NCBI GenBank assembly: GCA_041666745.1
Contig: JBAYGI010000006.1
Span: forward strand, 3,474 to 67,473
Origin: Candidatus Magasanikiibacteriota bacterium
Lineage (GTDB): Bacteria > Patescibacteriota > Patescibacteriia > Magasanikbacterales > GWA2-37-8
Direction of reading: 5' to 3'
DNA: 64,000 nt
Under the pieces are notes generated by a model. That model saw only the letters and a program-made list of their open reading frames with translations. It was not told the origin of the DNA and did not search any database. Below, piece after piece: positions 803-27,192 of the stretch (positions within the stretch are counted from its first letter, which is position 1; the number at the start of each line of letters is the position of its first letter). The position numbers and the translations under genes are program-made.

Positions 803-2623
803 GTGATTATTTTGATTATGCGTTTTATTGCTATTTTATCCTCAATTCTGCTTAGTTTGGCTATAGTTTCGCCTGTGGTGGCAAAAATCAGCCCACCGGA
901 GGCGCCGACTAGCTTTACATACCAAAAAGTGTCAAAAGGCACATTGCTTCAATGGAAAAACCCCAAGCCCTCAAATGGCTATTCTTGCTATATATACCGA
1001 TCAAACTCACCAAAACTCAAGGGCACAATGATTAAAAAATTGCCATGCAAAACCGGCAATATGCTTGATATTAGCGCAAAAAAGGCAAAGACTTATTATT
1101 ACTCAGTACAAGCACAGAGCGGTAAACTATTGTCTAAATTAGTGAAGGCAAATAAATTAACTCTGGAAAAGACGACTGTTGTAAAACAAGAAACAGTCGT
1201 AATTAATGCTCAAAAGGTGACGCCACCGATAGTTGAACCGGTCAAAATTGCTGTGACTCAACCTGTTGCGTCCGTAGTTTCACCCCAACCGTCATATGGC
1301 GGAGGTGGCGGAGGTGGCGGATCAAGTCCTCAACCAGCACCGGCCCAAGTCGCCCAACCAGTAGTCGTCGCGCCTGTTGTATTGGTGGTGCCTATTCAAA
1401 ATATTGAACCGACATCTACAATACCGACTACTACACCTGAAACAAACACCCCGCCGGTCGTAGTAATACCTCCAGTTATAATCACTGAAAAAACAATTTG
1501 CTCTTCTTCGTCTCAGAGCATAGTTTTGATTGTCGATCCTGATTTCAGCAATACAATACAAACAAAACTCACTCAATACGAAAATGATTTGTGCAAAGAA
1601 TATAACGTAATAGAAAAAACTGAAAAATTTAATAGCCCGCTGGCACTACGTTCATATTTGCAAGATCTTTATGGCAAAACACAACTTGTCGGAGCGGTTT
1701 TTATTGGTGATTACCCACATGCTTATCAGTGGATTACGTTGAATTCTGCCAACCCAAATATAGCTTCAATGTCTGAGGAAGCTTTGAGCCTCCAATATTA
1801 TGAAGATTTGGATGGTTCGTTTAAAAAATCTGAAAATTACAAATCTCTCGGAAACTATGAGTATTCTTTTGATATTCATGACGGTGAAGTTGATTGGGAA
1901 ATATGGGTCGGAGTTTTACCTTATTACAAAGGTGATGTTACAGCTACCGCCGAAGCCCTTAATCGTTTCTTTGACAAAGATCATGTTTACAAAACAAGTG
2001 GATCCGGCATCCCGCGAGCTTTCGCTCAGATCAATGAGCACATGACTTTCGATCCAACAGATGATTCTAGTTTTACTCAACTTCTTCAAACATATCGCAC
2101 AAATATTTATTCATGGACTCCATTTAGTGATTCATTTGCATCGCGTTTTTATGTAAATGGAAACGTGCCGGAAGATAATTCGATTGATACCGGCTATAAA
2201 GATCTAACAATTGGAGTTGCAGATTTTACCAGTATAGCTGCTCACGGATTTTATGGAGGCAGTGGCAAAACAGATATTAGTTGGGTAGAGAAAAATTCAA
2301 TACAAACAATTTTTTATTGGAATGACGCTTGTGCGATCGGAAATCTTGATGTTAAAGATAATTTTTTGACTTCAGTATTATATAAAACAAACAGTGAAGT
2401 TTTGGTTGCAAAAGGCGCGACAAATAATTCAGGAGGTATGGGAAGTAATACAAACGGATTTTACGCACACAACATTGCCACCTCGCTAACAGCTGGAAAA
2501 AGTATCGGGCAAGCCGTGCTTGACCATGTCAATGTACCGCTGGCATATCCTTATGACCAAGATAGAGAATTTTTATTCACCACTTTCATACTGCTTGGTG
2601 ATCCGACATTGAAATTGAGATAA
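803..2623 (+). CDS. secreted clan-CD cysteine peptidase-like protein (gingipain/C25-like), with a Pro-rich linker and a Gly8 tract
   Basis: N-terminal signal peptide (LLSLAIVSPVVA). Low-complexity GGGGGGGGSSPQP linker. C-terminal domain has the His (IAAHGFYGG) and Cys (WNDACAIGN) dyad in the order typical of caspase-like clan CD peptidases. Confidence 0.45.
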   Translation: MIILIMRFIAILSSILLSLAIVSPVVAKISPPEAPTSFTYQKVSKGTLLQWKNPKPSNGYSCYIYRSNSPKLKGTMIKKLPCKTGNMLDISAKKAKTYYYSVQAQSGKLLSKLVKANKLTLEKTTVVKQETVVINAQKVTPPIVEPVKIAVTQPVASVVSPQPSYGGGGGGGGSSPQPAPAQVAQPVVVAPVVLVVPIQNIEPTSTIPTTTPETNTPPVVVIPPVIITEKTICSSSSQSIVLIVDPDFSNTIQTKLTQYENDLCKEYNVIEKTEKFNSPLALRSYLQDLYGKTQLVGAVFIGDYPHAYQWITLNSANPNIASMSEEALSLQYYEDLDGSFKKSENYKSLGNYEYSFDIHDGEVDWEIWVGVLPYYKGDVTATAEALNRFFDKDHVYKTSGSGIPRAFAQINEHMTFDPTDDSSFTQLLQTYRTNIYSWTPFSDSFASRFYVNGNVPEDNSIDTGYKDLTIGVADFTSIAAHGFYGGSGKTDISWVEKNSIQTIFYWNDACAIGNLDVKDNFLTSVLYKTNSEVLVAKGATNNSGGMGSNTNGFYAHNIATSLTAGKSIGQAVLDHVNVPLAYPYDQDREFLFTTFILLGDPTLKLR

Positions 2624-2639
2624 AAAAATTCTCGACCAA

Positions 2640-3248
2640 CTAAACTTTCCTAGCAATAAAATTCAAATAATTTTTTGTACTCGGTTTGAAAATCTCAAAG
2701 TAAATAATTTCAAATTTGTTTTGCTTCAACAGTTCTTCGATTTCTTCTTTTTTGTAAAAACTAAACCAACGAGGTGTGGAAATTTTGGTATTTTCTCGAT
2801 ACTCTTCTGTTTCACCTTCAATCATACCTAACCCAAATATCCCGTTGGGTTTCAATACTCTATAAATTTCCTGTATCGGTTTTATAATTTCAGCTTTTTT
2901 GACATGTAACAAAGACGTGTATGCCCAAACACCGTCAAACATATTTTCTGAAAAAGGCAAATTATTAAAATCACCAAGTACAGATTCAAAACCTTTTTCT
3001 AAACAAAATTTAATCATCGACTCTGAAGCGTCTAGACAAGTTACCGAGAGTCCTTTTTCTCGAAGAATGACCGCGTCCCTTCCCGGACCACTTCCTATGT
3101 CTAAAATATTTTTACCAACTAATCCAATAAACTTATCAAGGAATGTACGCGGAAATTTATCCCAAAAATCTACGGTTTGGTCATCGTAATTTTTCGCTGA
3201 CAAATTGTAAGCATCTATAGTTTGCTGATCCATAAATATATTTAGCAT
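2640..3248 (-). CDS. class I SAM-dependent methyltransferase
   Basis: Motif I LDIGSGPGRD and overall fold-family pattern. Confidence 0.8.
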   Translation of the reverse strand: MLNIFMDQQTIDAYNLSAKNYDDQTVDFWDKFPRTFLDKFIGLVGKNILDIGSGPGRDAVILREKGLSVTCLDASESMIKFCLEKGFESVLGDFNNLPFSENMFDGVWAYTSLLHVKKAEIIKPIQEIYRVLKPNGIFGLGMIEGETEEYRENTKISTPRWFSFYKKEEIEELLKQNKFEIIYFEIFKPSTKNYLNFIARKV

Positions 3249-3381: not shown

Positions 3382-3636
3382 ATGTATATGTCTGAAGACA
3401 AAATTATAACAAAATTATTAGAACATGATGAAAAACTTTCTAACATGGTTACTGGTAGTGAATTTCAAAAATTTAAAAGCGAATTATTACAAGGACAAGA
3501 TACAATGATTGGGATTTTAAAAAGACTTGATGAAGAAAGAATATTTACACATAAATGGGTAAAAGAAATAGAATATAAGGTTGAAGAAAACACAAAAGAA
3601 CTTCAAAAATTAAAACTACAACTAAATATTGCCTAA
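3382..3636 (+). CDS. hypothetical small coiled-coil protein
   Basis: 84-aa ORF with host-like composition, followed by a terminator. Confidence 0.4.
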   Translation: MYMSEDKIITKLLEHDEKLSNMVTGSEFQKFKSELLQGQDTMIGILKRLDEERIFTHKWVKEIEYKVEENTKELQKLKLQLNIA

Positions 3637-3658
3637 CAAATAAACTTCTCTGAAATTT

Positions 3659-3700
3659 TAAAGAGGACAAAAAAACACTCTTTTTACAAGAGTGTTTTTT
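3659..3700 (+). terminator. rho-independent terminator hairpin
   Basis: aaaaacactcttt / aagagtgttttt stem-loop followed by a T-run. Confidence 0.5.
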
Positions 3701-3830
3701 GTATCAAAACTACTCTCGTCATGACTTTAAAACAATTAAAGTGATAACGAGATGGAGTAGCCTTGATTAGCACAACCCCAGAGCTCGCCGGCCGAGGCCG
3801 GAGGGGTTGGGGGTTGAGTGATAGGAGGGG

Positions 3831-4412
3831 TTACTCGAACAGGTCGAGGTCTGCCAGCTCGCGCACCTTGACCTGCGCGGGCTTCTCAGAGACCAGATAC
3901 GCGTCATAGTTGCGGACGCGATTCTTGTCCTTCGAGAACAGCGTGACGAGCCACCACGCCTCGTCGCCGACCTGGATCGAACCGTTTGGGTTTATGGCGA
4001 TCACCACGCCCTGCTTCTTGGCGTTGGTGAGCGAGAGCCTGGGGCCATCCTTGCAGATGATCCCAGAGATCTTCTCGGTTGGCACGACCGTCTCACCCTT
4101 CACGTTGGTGTAGGTGAGGTTGGTGGGCGGATCGAACGCCAGATCCGGTTCCGGCGTGAGAATCGGTTCTCCGTACTTCCCCGGAGAGGCCATGTAGTAC
4201 TGGCGCTCCCCGTTCGGTCCGAGATTCATGATCATATACTGGCCGGGTTTCTTTCCGACCTCGACCGTCCACTGACATGTAGGGTTGGTGGAGCAAAGAT
4301 CCCGCAAAAACTTCTTCAGCGCCGGCCGATTGTCTGAATCGACCAACGCGAATTGCTCATCAGGGCTAAGCTCGCGCCACGCCGCGATCATCGCGTCGAA
4401 TGTTGGCTTCAT
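3831..4412 (-). CDS. hypothetical protein on GC-rich island A
   Basis: GC about 58% against a ~35% background. Probable start at MKPTFDAM, preceded by an AAAGGA RBS. TTGACT-17-TATTTT promoter near 4550-4583 (minus orientation). GC hairpin ccggcctcggccgg after the stop. No recognisable family. Confidence 0.55.
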   Translation of the reverse strand: MKPTFDAMIAAWRELSPDEQFALVDSDNRPALKKFLRDLCSTNPTCQWTVEVGKKPGQYMIMNLGPNGERQYYMASPGKYGEPILTPEPDLAFDPPTNLTYTNVKGETVVPTEKISGIICKDGPRLSLTNAKKQGVVIAINPNGSIQVGDEAWWLVTLFSKDKNRVRNYDAYLVSEKPAQVKVRELADLDLFE

Positions 4413-4615
4413 GTACTTTTCCTTTTTCCACCCTTTTACGGGCAGTACTTCCAACCACATGGCCAGAAGGAAGAACGCGGGTACCCCGGTCTTCTTTTGA
4501 GCCTGCCAAACAGGACCAAAAGAAAACCGCGAGTATCACAAAAACAATAATATAAAATAACACAAATTAGACAATTAGTCAATATTTGGGGGGGGTGCCG
4601 CCTATTTAAAAGATT

Positions 4616-5575
4616 TTACTTGATTAAAAAATTAAATAAATACCCAGTGAATATAATTCCCAACCCGACAACAGAAGAAAAAATAATAATAAGTTTTGTT
4701 TTCATTATCTTTTTCAAAATCATAAACTCCGGCAAAGACAAAGCGGTTACCGCCATCATGAAAGATAGAACTGTGCCTATAGCCACACCTTTTTCTGTCA
4801 AAGCACTCACCAAAGGAATCACTCCGGCGGCGTTGGAATAAAGCGGTATGCCAATTAAAGTAGCCAGTGGCACCGCATACCATTTATCTGCCCCCGCATA
4901 TTGTGCCAAAAAGTCCGCTGGAACGAAACCGTGTATCCAAGCACCCAAACCCACCCCAATAATAATATACAACCAAACTTTTTTAATTATACTTTGGGTG
5001 TAATTTTTGGCGTATCGCATTCTTTGTTGCCAACTAATTTTAGATGTAGTGTCGCCCAGCTTTTTTGTGTTTTGAGATAAATCCACCAGCAAATGTTCGA
5101 CTGGCAAGCGACCGATCACCAATCCGGATATTACAGATATGACCAAACCACTGGTGACATACAACAACGCTATTTTCCAACCAAAAGCTCCGAGAAGTAA
5201 TACTAGCGCGACTTCGTTAATCATCGGAGAGGCAACCAAAAAAGAAAAGGTCACCCCCAAAGGCACGCCCGCTTCAATAAAACCCAAAAACAGGGGGACG
5301 GCACTACAAGAACAAAACGGAGTGATAATCCCAAGTAAGGCGGCCAAAATATTACCAACGAATTTATGCTTGCGAGACAAAATTTGTTTAACTTTTTCTC
5401 TAGGCAAAAATGAACGCAAAACAGAAACTGCAAAAATAATAACCGCCAACAAAATAAAAATTTTGATGACATCAAAAATGAAAAAATTTATCGCCTCGCC
5501 GGCCAATGATTGCGAAGACAGATGAAAGACCGAAAAGGTGAGCCAGTCGGCTAATATTTTGATGGGGTAAAACAT
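4616..5575 (-). CDS. UPF0718/YraQ-family permease (COG0701)
   Basis: Polytopic membrane protein with the PFCSCSAVP CxC motif. Confidence 0.7.
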   Translation of the reverse strand: MFYPIKILADWLTFSVFHLSSQSLAGEAINFFIFDVIKIFILLAVIIFAVSVLRSFLPREKVKQILSRKHKFVGNILAALLGIITPFCSCSAVPLFLGFIEAGVPLGVTFSFLVASPMINEVALVLLLGAFGWKIALLYVTSGLVISVISGLVIGRLPVEHLLVDLSQNTKKLGDTTSKISWQQRMRYAKNYTQSIIKKVWLYIIIGVGLGAWIHGFVPADFLAQYAGADKWYAVPLATLIGIPLYSNAAGVIPLVSALTEKGVAIGTVLSFMMAVTALSLPEFMILKKIMKTKLIIIFSSVVGLGIIFTGYLFNFLIK

Positions 5576-5677
5576 GACTGATATTTTATCACAACCTATG
5601 CAAGTTTACCATCAACCTATGCAAAAATATCTATATTTTAACAAAAACTTCCCTTTTACAAGAGAAGCTTCAGTTTG

Positions 5678-5750
5678 TCGGGGTGACAGGGCTTGAACCT
5701 GCGGCCTTCTGGTCCCAAACCAGACGCTCTACCAACTGAGCTACGCCCCG
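5678..5750 (-). tRNA. tRNA-Pro (TGG)
   Basis: Cloverleaf folded by eye. Anticodon loop tttggga, G37, 7-bp acceptor stem with one mismatch. Confidence 0.8.
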
Positions 5751-5771
5751 AATTAAATTGTTTCCAGCCTA

Positions 5772-5843
5772 GTGCCGGGAGTGAGGATCGGACTCACGAC
5801 GCAAGGCTCTTCAGGCCTTCGCTCTACCACTGAGCTACCCCGG
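5772..5843 (-). tRNA. tRNA-Phe (GAA)
   Basis: gccggggtagctcagtggtagagc... with anticodon loop ctGAAga and T-arm gttcgatcc. Confidence 0.85.
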
Positions 5844-5862
5844 CAATTTTCCTTGTAGCTTA

Positions 5863-5935
5863 GTGGACCGACAGGGATTCGAACCCTGGACCCCCGCGTT
5901 GCAAACGCGGTGCTCTACCAGCTGAGCTACCGGCC
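5863..5935 (-). tRNA. tRNA-Ala (TGC)
   Basis: G3:U70 wobble in the acceptor stem (Ala identity element). Anticodon loop ttTGCaa. T-arm ggttcgaatcc. Confidence 0.85.
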
Positions 5936-5943
5936 CAAAAAAC

Positions 5944-8256: not shown

Positions 8257-10651
<2,395 letters not shown>

Positions 10652-15678: not shown

Positions 15679-15803
15679 AGCGGGGATATTGTAATACTTT
15701 TCTGGATGATTGACAAATATAGAAAAATATGATACAAAGCAGTGTCATGCTGAGAAGTTTTCTACAGCCTCTGACACCGTTCGTTGACTCAAAGGAGACT
15801 ATT

Positions 15804-16391
15804 TTGAAGAGGTTCATTGTCGCAACACTGGCGATGATTGTGGGGTTCTCCACCACAACAGCCGGTGCAGACACATTTTCCGCCAGTCGAGTCAGGATGC
15901 TCATCCATGGCTCCAACCAGTTCAGCGAGCAGTTGGGCGCGTCTGTTCACTTCATTCCGGCTGGAAATCTGCTGGGAGAGGTAGCACCGTTGATCTACGG
16001 CTCGTTCGACTGGACACCGATTCCGGAACTGACAATCAGCCCTACCGTGGGCTGGACGTTCAAGCCGGATGAGATGGTTGTGTCGCTCCGCCTCGCCCCG
16101 AAAATCGGCAAGTTCTGGGGGTGGGTGGATCTTGAAGAACGACCGACGTCCCGTGCATTCTACTGGTTCGTGCAGGCTCAATACCAGGTAACGAGCTTCC
16201 TGCACATCGGTGCCGAGCAAGAGTCATGGGGCGATTTCCACGACTTCAGCACGGCTTCGCACGGTGGCGGCCCGAACGTCCTCCTCCGCTTCGGAAGAAA
16301 CTTCGGCACAGACCTTGCACTACACGCCCGTTCCCTCGGCGGCAGTGCGGTCAATCTGGAGTTCTTTTCCCGGATCCATTTGTTCCTCTAA
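15804..16391 (+). CDS. GC-rich secreted protein, paralog 1 (island C)
   Basis: TTG start after an AAGGAG RBS. Signal peptide MKRFIVATLAMIVGFSTTTAGA. Beta-rich alternating pattern ending NLEFFSRIHLFL. TTGACA promoter at 15709. The ORF-track ATG at 15729 is probably too far upstream. Confidence 0.5.
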   Translation: MKRFIVATLAMIVGFSTTTAGADTFSASRVRMLIHGSNQFSEQLGASVHFIPAGNLLGEVAPLIYGSFDWTPIPELTISPTVGWTFKPDEMVVSLRLAPKIGKFWGWVDLEERPTSRAFYWFVQAQYQVTSFLHIGAEQESWGDFHDFSTASHGGGPNVLLRFGRNFGTDLALHARSLGGSAVNLEFFSRIHLFL

Positions 16392-16470
16392 CCGGTTGCG
16401 CGCTACCGTCCAACAAAGCGCGCAAAATCTTTTTCAACTTAATATATTTAGGTTTAAGAAGATAATAAAA
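16392..16470 (+). repeat. conserved 3' element copy 1 (hairpin ttgcgcgc...gcgcgcaa)
   Basis: About 90% identical over ~80 bp to 19343-19425. Followed by a terminator at 16471-16506. Confidence 0.7.
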
Positions 16471-16511
16471 AAAACCGACTGCCATCTGCGATCGGTTTTT
16501 TTATAAAAATC

Positions 16512-16709: not shown

Positions 16710-16779
16710 TTTTCTGATACAGTATATTCAGGTAACAAGAAACTCGGGACAAATCCGCCGAAAGGGGAAAGCCGTAAGG

Positions 16780-17349
16780 CTACCGAGTCATCTGACCGTC
16801 CACAAGCTGGACGGTTATTTTTTTCTCAAATAATTTAGTTAATTTAATAGTTTGCTCTGTGGAATTATCTGCGTGAGAACGAAATAATCCTGCGATTGCG
16901 TCCGCTAATCTCAAGCCCGCCGACGCTTCGTCCCTTAACAATCTAATTTTCTTTACAGAAATATTTTTATCACGCAAAACCTTTTTTAGTTTTTGTTCAT
17001 ATCGTTTTGACTTTTTACCATCTATAATTATTTTTTTAATATTGTGTTCTATTATTAAATGCTGAAAAATATTTTCAAAAGCAATATTATAATTTATTGG
17101 ATTATTTACAATGGCTAGTTTAAAAGAAAAATCCAAATTACTCACTACAGTAAGAAAACTTGCTCGTTTTTTCCATCCATTTGTTGAACCATAATCCGAC
17201 CAATGAAACGGTTTTATGCATAATAATTTTTCTACTTCAACAACCGCTTCTTCCATTTCTTTGATACTTTTTGCTTGTAAATAAACAAAAGAAATAGTTG
17301 AATGCCCTACTTTTTTATGAATACCTGATTCGTCTATAAAAATTATCAT
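16780..17349 (-). CDS. DUF3800 family protein
   Basis: N-terminal MIIFIDESG signature. Confidence 0.55.
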   Translation of the reverse strand: MIIFIDESGIHKKVGHSTISFVYLQAKSIKEMEEAVVEVEKLLCIKPFHWSDYGSTNGWKKRASFLTVVSNLDFSFKLAIVNNPINYNIAFENIFQHLIIEHNIKKIIIDGKKSKRYEQKLKKVLRDKNISVKKIRLLRDEASAGLRLADAIAGLFRSHADNSTEQTIKLTKLFEKKITVQLVDGQMTR

Positions 17350-18543: not shown

Positions 18544-18661
18544 ATTGTCATATTATTTATGATAACATCATTATAATATGCTTAGCCAAAATTGTCAACT
18601 TGCTAGGATTGTTGTCAAGTGGAATGTGACTGTTTTGGGCTAAAGTTAGCCAAAATACCCT

Positions 18662-18690
18662 TGACAAGATTATGAATATGTGATATACTT
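18662..18690 (+). promoter_or_regulatory. consensus promoter TTGACA-17-TATACT for paralog 2
   Basis: Perfect hexamers seen directly. Preceded by ttagccaaaat direct repeats at 18580-18655. Confidence 0.55.
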
Positions 18691-18856
18691 TGCTGTTACG
18701 ATGAATAACCGTAATGAAGTTCTTTACAACTGCCAGACGGAGTAGTGAACGGCAAAACTGCTTTTTACTACCTCGTCTGGCACAAGCAATATGGGTTCAC
18801 AAATGTGACTCGATTGACCAGTGCAGGTGGGCGGACTTATGTCCGGGGAGAATACC

Positions 18857-19342
18857 ATGAAGTCGACCCTCATCGTTCTCGTGCTCGCGTTCGTCTCTCT
18901 CACGGCCGCCACGGCCATCGGGCTCACCCCCGGCCTCAGTTTCCGGGAGGGATACGTCGTCCTGCTCAAGGACGGAGGTACCCCCGGACCGGTGGGTACC
19001 CGGATCGACTTCACTGTTTCTGAGAAGATCTCAGAGACGGTGTCCCTCATCGGAGGGGTAGGGGTGGGTACCCCGAACGATGTCTTCAAACCATCCCTGC
19101 GGATAGCCGTGGGTGGTGCGATGGCATTGGTGGGCAGGTGGTCTGTCCACGCCAGCGGACTGTTCCAGCGCAACATTGGTTACGGCGGGAAACCGTCGAC
19201 AACAGCGCTGGCTGTCGGAGGAGGTCCGACTTACAAAGTTGCAGATGGCGTTGCCTTGTCCTTGTCTTTCGGACCAGGCAAAATGCTTGACGGTGACTGG
19301 TCGTTTCTCATCCAGCCGTCGATTAGCATCTCCTTTCTGTAA
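18857..19342 (+). CDS. GC-rich secreted protein, paralog 2 (island D)
   Basis: GGGGAGAA RBS then ATG. Signal peptide MKSTLIVLVLAFVSLTAATA. Beta-rich. Ends ISISFL. About 62% GC. Confidence 0.5.
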   Translation: MKSTLIVLVLAFVSLTAATAIGLTPGLSFREGYVVLLKDGGTPGPVGTRIDFTVSEKISETVSLIGGVGVGTPNDVFKPSLRIAVGGAMALVGRWSVHASGLFQRNIGYGGKPSTTALAVGGGPTYKVADGVALSLSFGPGKMLDGDWSFLIQPSISISFL

Positions 19343-19425
19343 CCCATAACCGGTCGCGCGCTACCATCCAACAAAGCGCGCAAAATCTTTTTCAACTTAA
19401 TACCTTTAGGTTTAAGAAGACAACA
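19343..19425 (+). repeat. conserved 3' element copy 2
   Basis: Aligns with 16392-16470. Terminator at 19424-19457. Confidence 0.7.
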
Positions 19426-19466
19426 AAAAACCACCCGAGAGAAGGGTGGTTTTTTGTTTATAAATT

Positions 19467-26472: not shown

Positions 26473-26641
26473 CCCTTAAATCCATTTTCACAACAGAACA
26501 AAAACCACCGACCAATCACCGGTGGTTTTTTATTTGAAAAGGCACTATCCCCATTGACTTCTTTCTTTTTTTTAATTAGTATGAAACCTAATGTTCGTGG
26601 CTAAACTCTAACCACGAAACCCAACCACCAGGAGAACTGAC

Positions 26642-27013
26642 ATGACCCTGAAATCCGAGCTCGTGGCAATACGCCAAGACAAGCAGGAAAGTCGCGACAG
26701 AGAGGACCAGAGGATAGTTCAGGAGAGTCACGACCACATGACTGCTCTGATCGACAACCTCCCTGACATGCTGAGGGCACAAGCCCGACTCAACGGCGGT
26801 ACGTTGTGGGTCAGCACATGCTACACCACCCATGTGAAGTGCGTGGTTCGTGACGAGGAAGGGGAAGACACTGTGTGGCACAGTGAGAAGACTTATTTCA
26901 CAGGGGCAGACTGGAGACGACTGGAAGTGTGGGTCCGGGAAAACGGCCTCCAGATGAATCGTCATCCAGATCAGGCCGCTGGGGGTGCGCCCTTGTACGG
27001 GATTGAGCCCTAA
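26642..27013 (+). CDS. hypothetical protein on GC-rich island E
   Basis: AGGAGA RBS. TTGACT-17-TAGTAT promoter at 26544. 123 aa with no recognised family. 11-bp-stem hairpin at 27027-27056. Confidence 0.5.
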   Translation: MTLKSELVAIRQDKQESRDREDQRIVQESHDHMTALIDNLPDMLRAQARLNGGTLWVSTCYTTHVKCVVRDEEGEDTVWHSEKTYFTGADWRRLEVWVRENGLQMNRHPDQAAGGAPLYGIEP

Positions 27014-27127
27014 CTCCAACCAACATGTCCCACTCGCACAGGCGAGCGAGTGGGACAGAGGCAATAGTATCTACATTGATCACTCGCCACGTAATTTGAA
27101 AATATTTTAAAATATGTTTTCAGATTA

Positions 27128-27192
27128 CGCGAGTGATCTAAACGCTTTAAATTAAAAAACATCGAAATTAAATTCGGTGTTTTTTTATTCCC
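27128..27192 (+). repeat. R4 direct repeat copy 1 (includes a terminator hairpin)
   Basis: gagtgatctaaacgctttaaattaaaaaacatcgaaattaaattcggtgttttttt. Near-identical to 28951-29010. Confidence 0.7.

Follow-up and report, generated by a model that had tools for sequence, protein, structure and literature searches.

A conserved single-gene transcription unit with G/C-ending codons and covarying 3′ hairpins in a Candidatus Magasanikbacteria genome

The 64-kb window considered here (64,000 nucleotides of contig JBAYGI010000006.1) comes from a genome of Candidatus Magasanikbacteria (candidate phyla radiation, CPR; Patescibacteria). Close to its left end lies a GC-rich island, which we call island A. 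Across it, GC content measured in 300-nt windows climbs from 0.26 to 0.62 before dropping back, which bears out the sharp compositional edge that an earlier note on this DNA had pointed to; the window as a whole has a GC content of 0.396, and the gene itself one of 0.586. On the minus strand, island A forms a self-contained transcription unit of one gene (~3670–4582), and sequence conservation among homologous loci ends at its −35 element on one side and at its terminator on the other. All features described in the earlier note are present and exceed chance expectation, with corrections. The open reading frame (ORF), for example, is a real minus-strand ORF but encodes 193 amino acids rather than the 194 first given, as does the identical database copy (P0001). 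An ORF on the antisense strand was rejected as the true gene: variation falls at the third positions of the sense frame, and the sense protein is predicted to fold confidently. No ORF for an integrase or transposase lies within 10 kb of island A, and around the unit we found no convincing terminal inverted repeats or target-site duplications, only short, AT-rich, non-collinear chance matches.

Table 1. Positions of the elements of island A and of three further GC islands, in window coordinates.
Feature	Position	Strand	Details
Sigma-70-type promoter	4554..4582	minus	TTGACT (−35, 4577–4582), 17-nt spacer, TATTTT, TG extended −10
Second overlapping promoter match	4574..4547	minus	TTGTCT-16-TATTAT
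5′ untranslated region (UTR), ~135 nt, from predicted transcription start site (TSS)	4413..4547	minus	GC 0.48; ends in Shine–Dalgarno-like GGAAAAAGGAAAAG
5′ hairpin	4477..4539	minus	GGUUUUCUUUUGG...CUCAAAAGAAGACC; z = −4.1; 19-nt arms, 84% complementary
Coding sequence (CDS), 193 amino acids	3834..4412, stop 3831–3833	minus	GC at codon positions 1/2/3 (GC1/2/3) = 0.56/0.40/0.80
3′UTR hairpin 1	3773..3816	minus	CCGGCC-UC-GGCCGG core 3788–3801 inside CAACCCC/GGGGUUG
Linker GGCGAGCUCUGGGGU	3775–3789	minus	within the hairpin 1 entry; invariant in every locus with the module
3′UTR hairpin 2 (inverted repeat of the earlier note)	3703..3767	minus	GC 0.34; model R1 88.5 bits
Intrinsic terminator	3670..3700	minus	13-bp stem AAAAAACACUCUU/AAGAGUGUUUUUU, 100% complementary, then U-run
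G8 (C8 on coding strand)	4588..4595		5 nt upstream of −35; outside conserved unit; lineage-specific
Island B	15711–16500, CDS ~15804–16391	plus	single-gene GC island
Island C	18660–19455, CDS 18857–19342	plus	single-gene GC island
Island D	26545–27190, CDS 26642–27013	plus	single-gene GC island

The promoter with the TTGACT −35 of the earlier note is autonomous and near-consensus, and both its −35 and −10 are conserved in the homologous loci L008 and L039 (loci are designated by L numbers). Between the −35 and the ATG, the window and L008 share 83% identity, although their CDSs differ at 53% of fourfold-degenerate sites; across the window, L008, and L039, mean column identity over this region is 77%. 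The arms of the 5′ hairpin are conserved, with CCUG/CAGG in the window replaced by CUU/AAG in L039. The hairpin starts 0 to 8 nt from the predicted TSS, depending on which of the two promoter matches is chosen.

Next to this promoter stands a G8 tract, which lies one base to the left of where it was first placed. It is the sole G/C run of at least 7 nt in the 64 kb, where 0.1 runs of at least 8 nt are expected. The combination of a statistically unusual homopolymer and an adjoining promoter invites the idea, put forward in the earlier note, that the gene is phase-variable and switched by slipped-strand changes in G8. However, the tract lies upstream of the −35, outside both the −35/−10 spacer and the ORF, so that a longer or shorter tract would leave promoter spacing and reading frame as they are. 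It also falls beyond the limits of the conserved unit, and none of the 16 homologous loci examined has such a tract upstream: in 15 loci there is no G/C run of at least 6 nt within 350 nt upstream, and L039 has no tract at this position, only an unrelated G6 that lies farther from the promoter. Conservation in L008 and L039 begins at the −35. The contingency promoters of Neisseria and Haemophilus also adjoin a G/C homopolymer, but there the tract is part of the −35/−10 spacer or of the ORF and is also present in orthologs, whereas the tract of island A is unique to this genome. Phase variation through G8 is thus extremely improbable. As a separate observation, the coding strand of the family gene in L036 has a C9-G-C8 tract at the start of the 3′UTR (2886–2915); the window's 3′UTR is likewise C-rich at the matching position, and the C8 of the window, on the coding strand, is upstream of the promoter.

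The 141-nt 3′ region that holds both hairpins (3690–3830) folds with z = −7.2 relative to shuffled sequences. It is modular, comprising hairpin 1, the invariant linker, hairpin 2, and the terminator, and is kept in L002, L006, L008/L011, L012, L034/L035, and L039, with a divergent form in L036. Hairpin 1 shows a compensatory change among loci, from CCGGC/GCUGG to CCAAC/GUUGG. This CCGGCC-TC-GGCCGG hairpin had been read as a GC hairpin terminator; the hairpin is real, but no U-tract lies behind it, the conserved linker and hairpin 2 follow, and the terminator sits 90 nt further on. Because the terminator stands between convergent genes, it can act in both directions, and a similar one follows the unit in L039. 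Behind the terminator of the family gene, L012 (~5620–5690) and L034/L035 (L034, ~3640–3760; L035, ~850–970) carry a short conserved unit, possibly a small RNA gene, in which a promoter-like TTTACA...TATACT is combined with a GUUGGA...UCCAAC hairpin and a terminator of its own.

Hairpin 2 corresponds to the imperfect inverted repeat that had been taken for the left boundary of the island. The repeat exists, over a longer span than reported and with a right arm that reads aacgagatggagtag and not gacgag..., but what it forms is an RNA hairpin of the 3′UTR, conserved and covarying. An 11-bp outer helix is followed by a 4-nt bulge (UNCA) on the 5′ side and by inner helices of 9 and 7 bp, and the core GGCUAC-U-NCA-UCUCG / CGAGA-GUAGC is invariant. 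Among seven distinct sequences, 98.9% of the cells in 27 base pairs are paired and 10 pairs show compensatory changes; none of 500 shuffles scored as high, and slid controls were 33 to 43% paired. The conserved G·U pairs form on the sense strand only, and the element therefore acts as RNA. That its core never varies suggests that the hairpin is read by a specific trans-acting factor. An Rfam search of positions 3600–4700 at a permissive threshold returned chance-level matches only, and hairpin 2 falls in no Rfam family; judged from the alignment, it is a new covarying RNA motif, absent from Rfam.

A covariance model of hairpin 2 (R1) finds a single copy in the window. It also detects a related hairpin in L035 (34.6 bits, E = 3e-7), ~90 nt after an unrelated gene, with the inner stem CUCGUUAU/AUAACGAG and 5′ bulge as in island A and with a terminator following. 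That gene (L035, 2823–3444) encodes 151 amino acids with no Pfam match and has a GC fraction at third codon positions (GC3) of 0.52, against 0.34 to 0.39 for its neighbors. The pattern of the 3′ element was absent from the viral contigs scanned, and a metagenome scan returned only the L006 contig, which was already known. At eight distinct loci, then, a stable conserved inverted repeat precedes the terminator, the arrangement expected of a 3′ stabilizing hairpin.

These 3′ elements could instead mark a mobile single-gene cassette that recombines at the hairpin (attC-like, REP/RAYT-like, or IS200/IS605-like). Hairpin 2 is bulged, as attC sites are, the same class of hairpin lies behind an unrelated gene in L035, and islands B and C have a 3′ module in common (see below). 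We consider a cassette very unlikely all the same: neither an integrase nor a transposase nor an array is present, the unit includes a promoter, the G·U pairs favor folding of the sense-strand RNA, the gene is syntenic in several species, and a search of viral contigs did not find the element. The attC reading itself was rejected, as the arms of hairpin 2 do not fit the core sites RYYYAAC (R″) and GTTRRRY (R′).

The encoded protein had been called an orphan that matches nothing recognizable. It is not an orphan: a word-indexed protein search returned 37 homologs (E from 1e-128 to 1e-25), an exhaustive profile search of 1.84 billion proteins gave 151 clusters at 50% identity, and a genome scan placed the family gene at 21 loci, most of them in Patescibacteria (Magasanikbacteria, Peregrinibacteria, Peribacteria, and Gracilibacteria) and two in Bdellovibrionota. 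That it lacks an annotated relative does hold, in that no curated family matches. Pfam, NCBIfam, PHROGs, and PADLOC gave no match even when longer and fused relatives were included, and a sequence profile search of the PDB gave nothing credible. As far as these sequence searches reach, the family is unannotated and restricted to Patescibacteria and Bdellovibrionota. Its conserved core of ~150 amino acids is beta-rich, and the subfamily of the window adds an N-terminal extension of ~45 amino acids with three predicted helices; the protein is predicted to be cytoplasmic. Structure prediction and remote homology search, which the earlier note had recommended, thus delivered homologs and a confident AlphaFold2 model (predicted local distance difference test score 88.9, core >95) but neither an annotated family nor a known fold: in a fold search of the model against the PDB and BFVD there was no significant match (best PDB E = 0.1, template modeling score ≤0.25). 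In no lineage is there a conserved gene neighborhood, which indicates a stand-alone gene. The members in L023 (4257–5537) and L024 (4296–5600), of 426 to 434 amino acids, carry a tandem domain duplication, a hint that the single-domain members may act as dimers.

The GC excess of the island A gene is concentrated at third codon positions. Its GC3 is 0.80, whereas native genes of the window, including those for EF-G, S7, and S12, have values of 0.23 to 0.46; since these three genes are low, codon bias for high expression is not the cause. The codons that the gene favors are the rarest among native genes: AAG makes up 14 of 15 lysine codons (12% in native genes), GAG 10 of 12 glutamate codons (21%), and CTC/CTG 13 of 17 (6% and 11%). 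In genomes of the Magasanikbacteria type, the family gene has GC3 values of 0.71 to 0.99 in hosts with a GC content of 0.34 to 0.45, with L012 at the extreme (GC3 0.99, genome GC 0.39); members from Peregrinibacteria and Peribacteria have native-like values (0.24–0.31). Genes adjoining the GC-type members are unaffected in composition. Two GC3 outliers were also seen in L038 (Magasanikbacteria, GC 0.38), a PNP_UDP_1 nucleoside phosphorylase gene (8763–9671, GC3 0.74) and a gene for a 185-amino-acid protein with no Pfam match (2500–3057, GC3 0.61); genes with G/C-ending codons seem to recur in the Magasanikbacteria lineage. A literature search on GC-ending genes in CPR genomes found nothing relevant.

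Syntenic loci allowed the age of this composition to be judged, using one triple (L013/L019/L033) and one pair (L015/L017). In the triple, flanking orthologs differ at 0.58 to 0.64 of fourfold sites, which is near saturation, and the gene differs at 0.41 to 0.68, yet its GC3 is still 0.77 to 0.85. In the pair, the corresponding differences are 0.37 to 0.60 for the flanks and 0.12 for the gene. Most fourfold differences of the gene exchange C and G (17 of 24 between the window and L012); in the flanks, C↔G is the least common class. When only sites that are G or C in each of the two sequences are counted, gene and flanks have similar C↔G rates per site (gene/flanks: 0.089/0.158, 0.167/0.133, and 0.36/0.275). 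What is depleted in the gene is fourfold sites that pair G or C with A or T, most strongly in L015/L017 (0.04 against 0.35). The persistence of GC3 at syntenic loci with saturated flanks, together with the predominance of C↔G differences, indicates that the composition is maintained and was not recently imported. Such a pattern marks a gene that has been in place as long as its neighbors and keeps losing A/T-ending variants, its G/C-ending codons having been retained in genomes of the Magasanikbacteria type beyond the time that synonymous sites need to saturate. With considerable confidence, we conclude that the gene is conserved and for the most part inherited vertically and that its high GC3 is maintained.

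The foreign origin implied by the word island fares poorly against these data. A recent acquisition from a GC-rich donor would account for the atypical composition and sharp edges, and the nearby tRNA cluster, the different neighbors among the three closest relatives, and the serine recombinase and Rep-like genes beside one homolog could all be read in its favor. Nevertheless, no integrase or convincing flanking repeats accompany the unit, conservation ends exactly at the −35 and the terminator, and GC3 shows no decay toward AT at the syntenic loci. Of the 21 genome loci, 20 are in AT-rich genomes, and the sole GC-rich host is a Bdellovibrionota metagenome-assembled genome. Changed context is itself uninformative, because gene order is fluid in this lineage: the closest orthologs of the flanking permease (86% and 81% identical) have other neighbors on both sides, so that even an 86%-identical housekeeping ortholog does not keep its surroundings, and an empty-site test tells nothing. 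A recent foreign island is thus largely refuted already, and we give it little credence.

Several neighborhood features are recorded here in their own right. Genes for tRNA-Pro(TGG), tRNA-Phe(GAA), and tRNA-Ala(TGC) form a cluster at 5677–5936 on the minus strand, 1.1 kb from island A; a gene for an ArsP-type permease flanks island A and stands between the unit and the cluster, which shows no sign of having served as an integration site. In L034, positions 1–1250, some 1.7 to 3 kb upstream of the family gene, encode a large serine recombinase and a replication protein of the REP_ORF2-G2P type and may represent an integrated element. L034 and L035 had been considered as one protein in two contexts; they are overlapping assemblies of one locus and were rejected as evidence of mobility. 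A GC-rich stretch (0.55) with only a dubious ORF lies in L006 between a peptidase M50 gene and rpsL (9845–10192) and may be a structured RNA gene.

To ask how the A/T-ending codons that remain are placed, we compared each gene with synonymous shuffles in which neither the protein nor any codon count changes. Thirteen GC-type genes contain 257 A/U runs of at least 3 nt, where 313 ± 12 are expected (ratio 0.82, z = −4.65), and 93 runs of at least 4 nt, where 126 are expected (ratio 0.74, z = −3.4). Native genes slightly exceed expectation (17 genes, ratio 1.04–1.10), and nine family members of the AT type hardly depart from it (0.94–0.98). In absolute terms, A/U 4-mers number 4 to 43 per kb in GC-type genes and 103 to 174 per kb in native genes and AT-type relatives. 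In partition-function folds, the predicted 878-nt transcript of island A has nine unpaired A/U runs per kb, against 21 to 43 for native transcripts, and half of its exposed runs sit at the ribosome-binding region.

The same features recur elsewhere in the window. Islands B, C, and D have GC3 values of 0.61 to 0.71, each with a near-consensus promoter and a GC-rich transcript, and their A/U runs are likewise depleted (ratio 0.78, z = −2.9). All four islands end in three consecutive 3′ hairpins (z from −6 to −10.6). None of the proteins of islands B, C, and D matches Pfam; those of B and C look like secreted, beta-rich proteins and have no detectable homology to each other (BLASTP E = 3.1). Their genes nevertheless have in common an 85-nt 3′ module that is ~95% identical (16392–16476 and 19350–19434) and consists of a GCGCGC...GCGCGC hairpin and an AT-rich hairpin. 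Because it stands behind unrelated proteins, this module suggests either a gene-independent 3′ element or intragenomic conversion. Beside island B, the window also contains a DUF3800-II RNA of Rfam (16732–16797, plus strand; 57.6 bits, above the gathering score), which overlaps the 3′ end of a DUF3800 gene on the opposite strand (16780–17349, minus; Pfam E = 1.5e-09).

Conversion could in principle act on composition as well. Biased gene conversion toward GC, or recurrent allelic replacement at a hot locus, might keep GC3 high with no selection on the mRNA; the near-identical module behind islands B and C, the low synonymous divergence of the gene in L015/L017 relative to its flanks, and the fact that the closest pair within the syntenic triple is not the same for gene and flanks would all be compatible with it. 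Against such a process, the enrichment centers on third positions, with the UTR and hairpin 2 much lower (0.48 and 0.34, against 0.80); in L015, L017, and L018 it reaches no further than the CDS, and adjacent genes are unaffected. Nor would biased conversion be expected to place the remaining A/T-ending codons by context such that A/U runs are avoided. We therefore regard conversion as unlikely. Selection at the level of translation, in which the rarest codons slow or gate protein synthesis through tRNA-dependent regulation or cotranslational folding, strikes us as equally doubtful. It has in its favor that AAG, GAG, and CTC/CTG are the rarest native codons and that the bias is limited to the CDS in loci of the L015 type. 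However, highly expressed genes of these organisms show no codon selection, so very strong selection per site would be required; a single tRNA normally decodes both NNC and NNU, which means that half of the bias would have no gating effect; and both the avoidance of A/U runs and the conserved UTR hairpins would go unexplained.

Taken together, the promoter, the 5′ hairpin, a CDS stripped of A/U runs, the 3′ modules, and the literature on mRNA decay favor selection on the transcript itself. RNase Y and RNase E make their decay-initiating cuts in AU-rich single strands, and stem-loops at the 5′ end protect mRNAs (PMC3997798); inverted repeats conserved at the 3′ ends of cry mRNAs stabilize them (PMC4113751). 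A related Magasanikbacteria locus encodes RNase Y. We accordingly favor, at about even confidence, the view that the transcript of island A has been selected to resist AU-directed decay. Loss of single-stranded A/U-rich sites would deny entry to a decay-initiating endonuclease of the RNase Y or RNase E type, the terminal hairpins would block decay that depends on the 5′ and 3′ ends, and the transcript would in consequence be unusually long-lived and abundant. The bulged core of the 3′ hairpin might in addition be recognized by a specific trans-acting factor. That mRNA stability is the property under selection, and which nucleases and factors take part, is what we infer from these elements.

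Several points weigh against this view. The TSS, on which the placement of the 5′ hairpin depends, is a prediction from sequence. The hairpin arms are strongly conserved in sequence, which a plain barrier to exonucleases would not need. UTR elements are not universal among GC-type members: those of L015, L017, and L018 have short, AT-rich UTRs with no hairpin modules. In the syntenic triple, the pair of loci closest in the gene (L013–L033, 74% amino acid identity) is not the pair closest in the flanks, so some allelic exchange is possible. The sequences compared are few and related, and the statistics are not independent. Folding energy of the CDS beyond what composition gives is weakly significant (mean z ~ −1.5 against synonymous shuffles), and for that reason extra secondary structure is not among our main arguments. 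Finally, a reason at the level of DNA for avoiding A/T runs is possible.

A close known counterpart of the 3′ region is the positive retroregulator of the cry genes of Bacillus thuringiensis, likewise a conserved, transcribed 3′ inverted repeat behind a single gene (PMC4113751, citing Wong & Chang 1986). The cry genes are strongly expressed, the repeat is tied to a long mRNA half-life, and some cry genes also have a 5′ stabilizer (PMC4113751). Island A differs in having two distinct hairpins and a separate terminator, a long hairpin with a sequence-invariant bulged core, and a CDS recoded to G/C-ending codons; stabilization would here be deduced from sequence. At the other end, the 5′ hairpin resembles the stem-loop stabilizers of ompA, papA, and aprE (PMC3997798), being a predicted stable hairpin near the predicted 5′ end that is conserved among orthologs. 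Unlike in those genes, its distance from the 5′ end (0–8 nt) depends on the predicted TSS.

Enterobacterial repetitive extragenic palindromic (REP) elements are also imperfect palindromes in transcribed 3′ intergenic regions and also have copies behind unrelated genes, as here in L035 and in islands B and C. REP elements can protect the upstream mRNA, and they occur in hundreds of near-identical copies per genome; by contrast, the 64-kb window has one R1 copy, and the other islands carry different modules. The sib site of phage lambda is likewise a long hairpin downstream of a gene and next to a terminator. Retroregulation by sib acts through RNase III and destabilizes its mRNA, and by analogy hairpin 2, with ~27 bp, could be an RNase III substrate that sets the fate of the mRNA from its 3′ end. 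With respect to codons, the cyanobacterial kaiBC genes and Neurospora frq are precedents in which selection holds the codon usage of a specific gene opposed to the genomic norm. The island A family differs in maximizing G/C at all synonymous positions (GC3 up to 0.99), with avoidance of A/U runs and with UTR structures, a combination that points to a target at the level of RNA rather than of decoding.

If selection for a durable transcript is the correct explanation, the arming of an mRNA against AU-directed RNases would count as a hitherto undescribed form of post-transcriptional control among CPR bacteria, whose cells are ultra-small, hold few copies of each mRNA, and have a physiology that is almost untested. 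Compositional islands in bacteria are routinely taken as horizontal transfer; island A is a warning for pipelines that predict islands or horizontal gene transfer in CPR genomes. GC3 values of up to 0.99 in genomes of 35 to 45% GC, in genes that diverge along with their neighbors, imply that synonymous sites of a specific gene are under strong selection (or bias) in organisms in which even ribosomal protein genes show no codon selection. More speculatively, and on balance we doubt it, CPR bacteria of the Magasanikbacteria type may possess a small regulon of armored mRNAs, made up of islands A to D and others in related genomes, in which unrelated small genes would have in common G/C-ending CDSs without A/U runs, strong promoters, 5′ and 3′ hairpin modules, and a trans-acting factor that reads these modules. 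Were this so, armored transcripts would outlast global AU-directed decay, for instance when cells starve away from a host, lie dormant, or have their RNA cleaved by a toxin; they would be selectively translated afterward, and the island A protein would be a conserved effector of that armored state.

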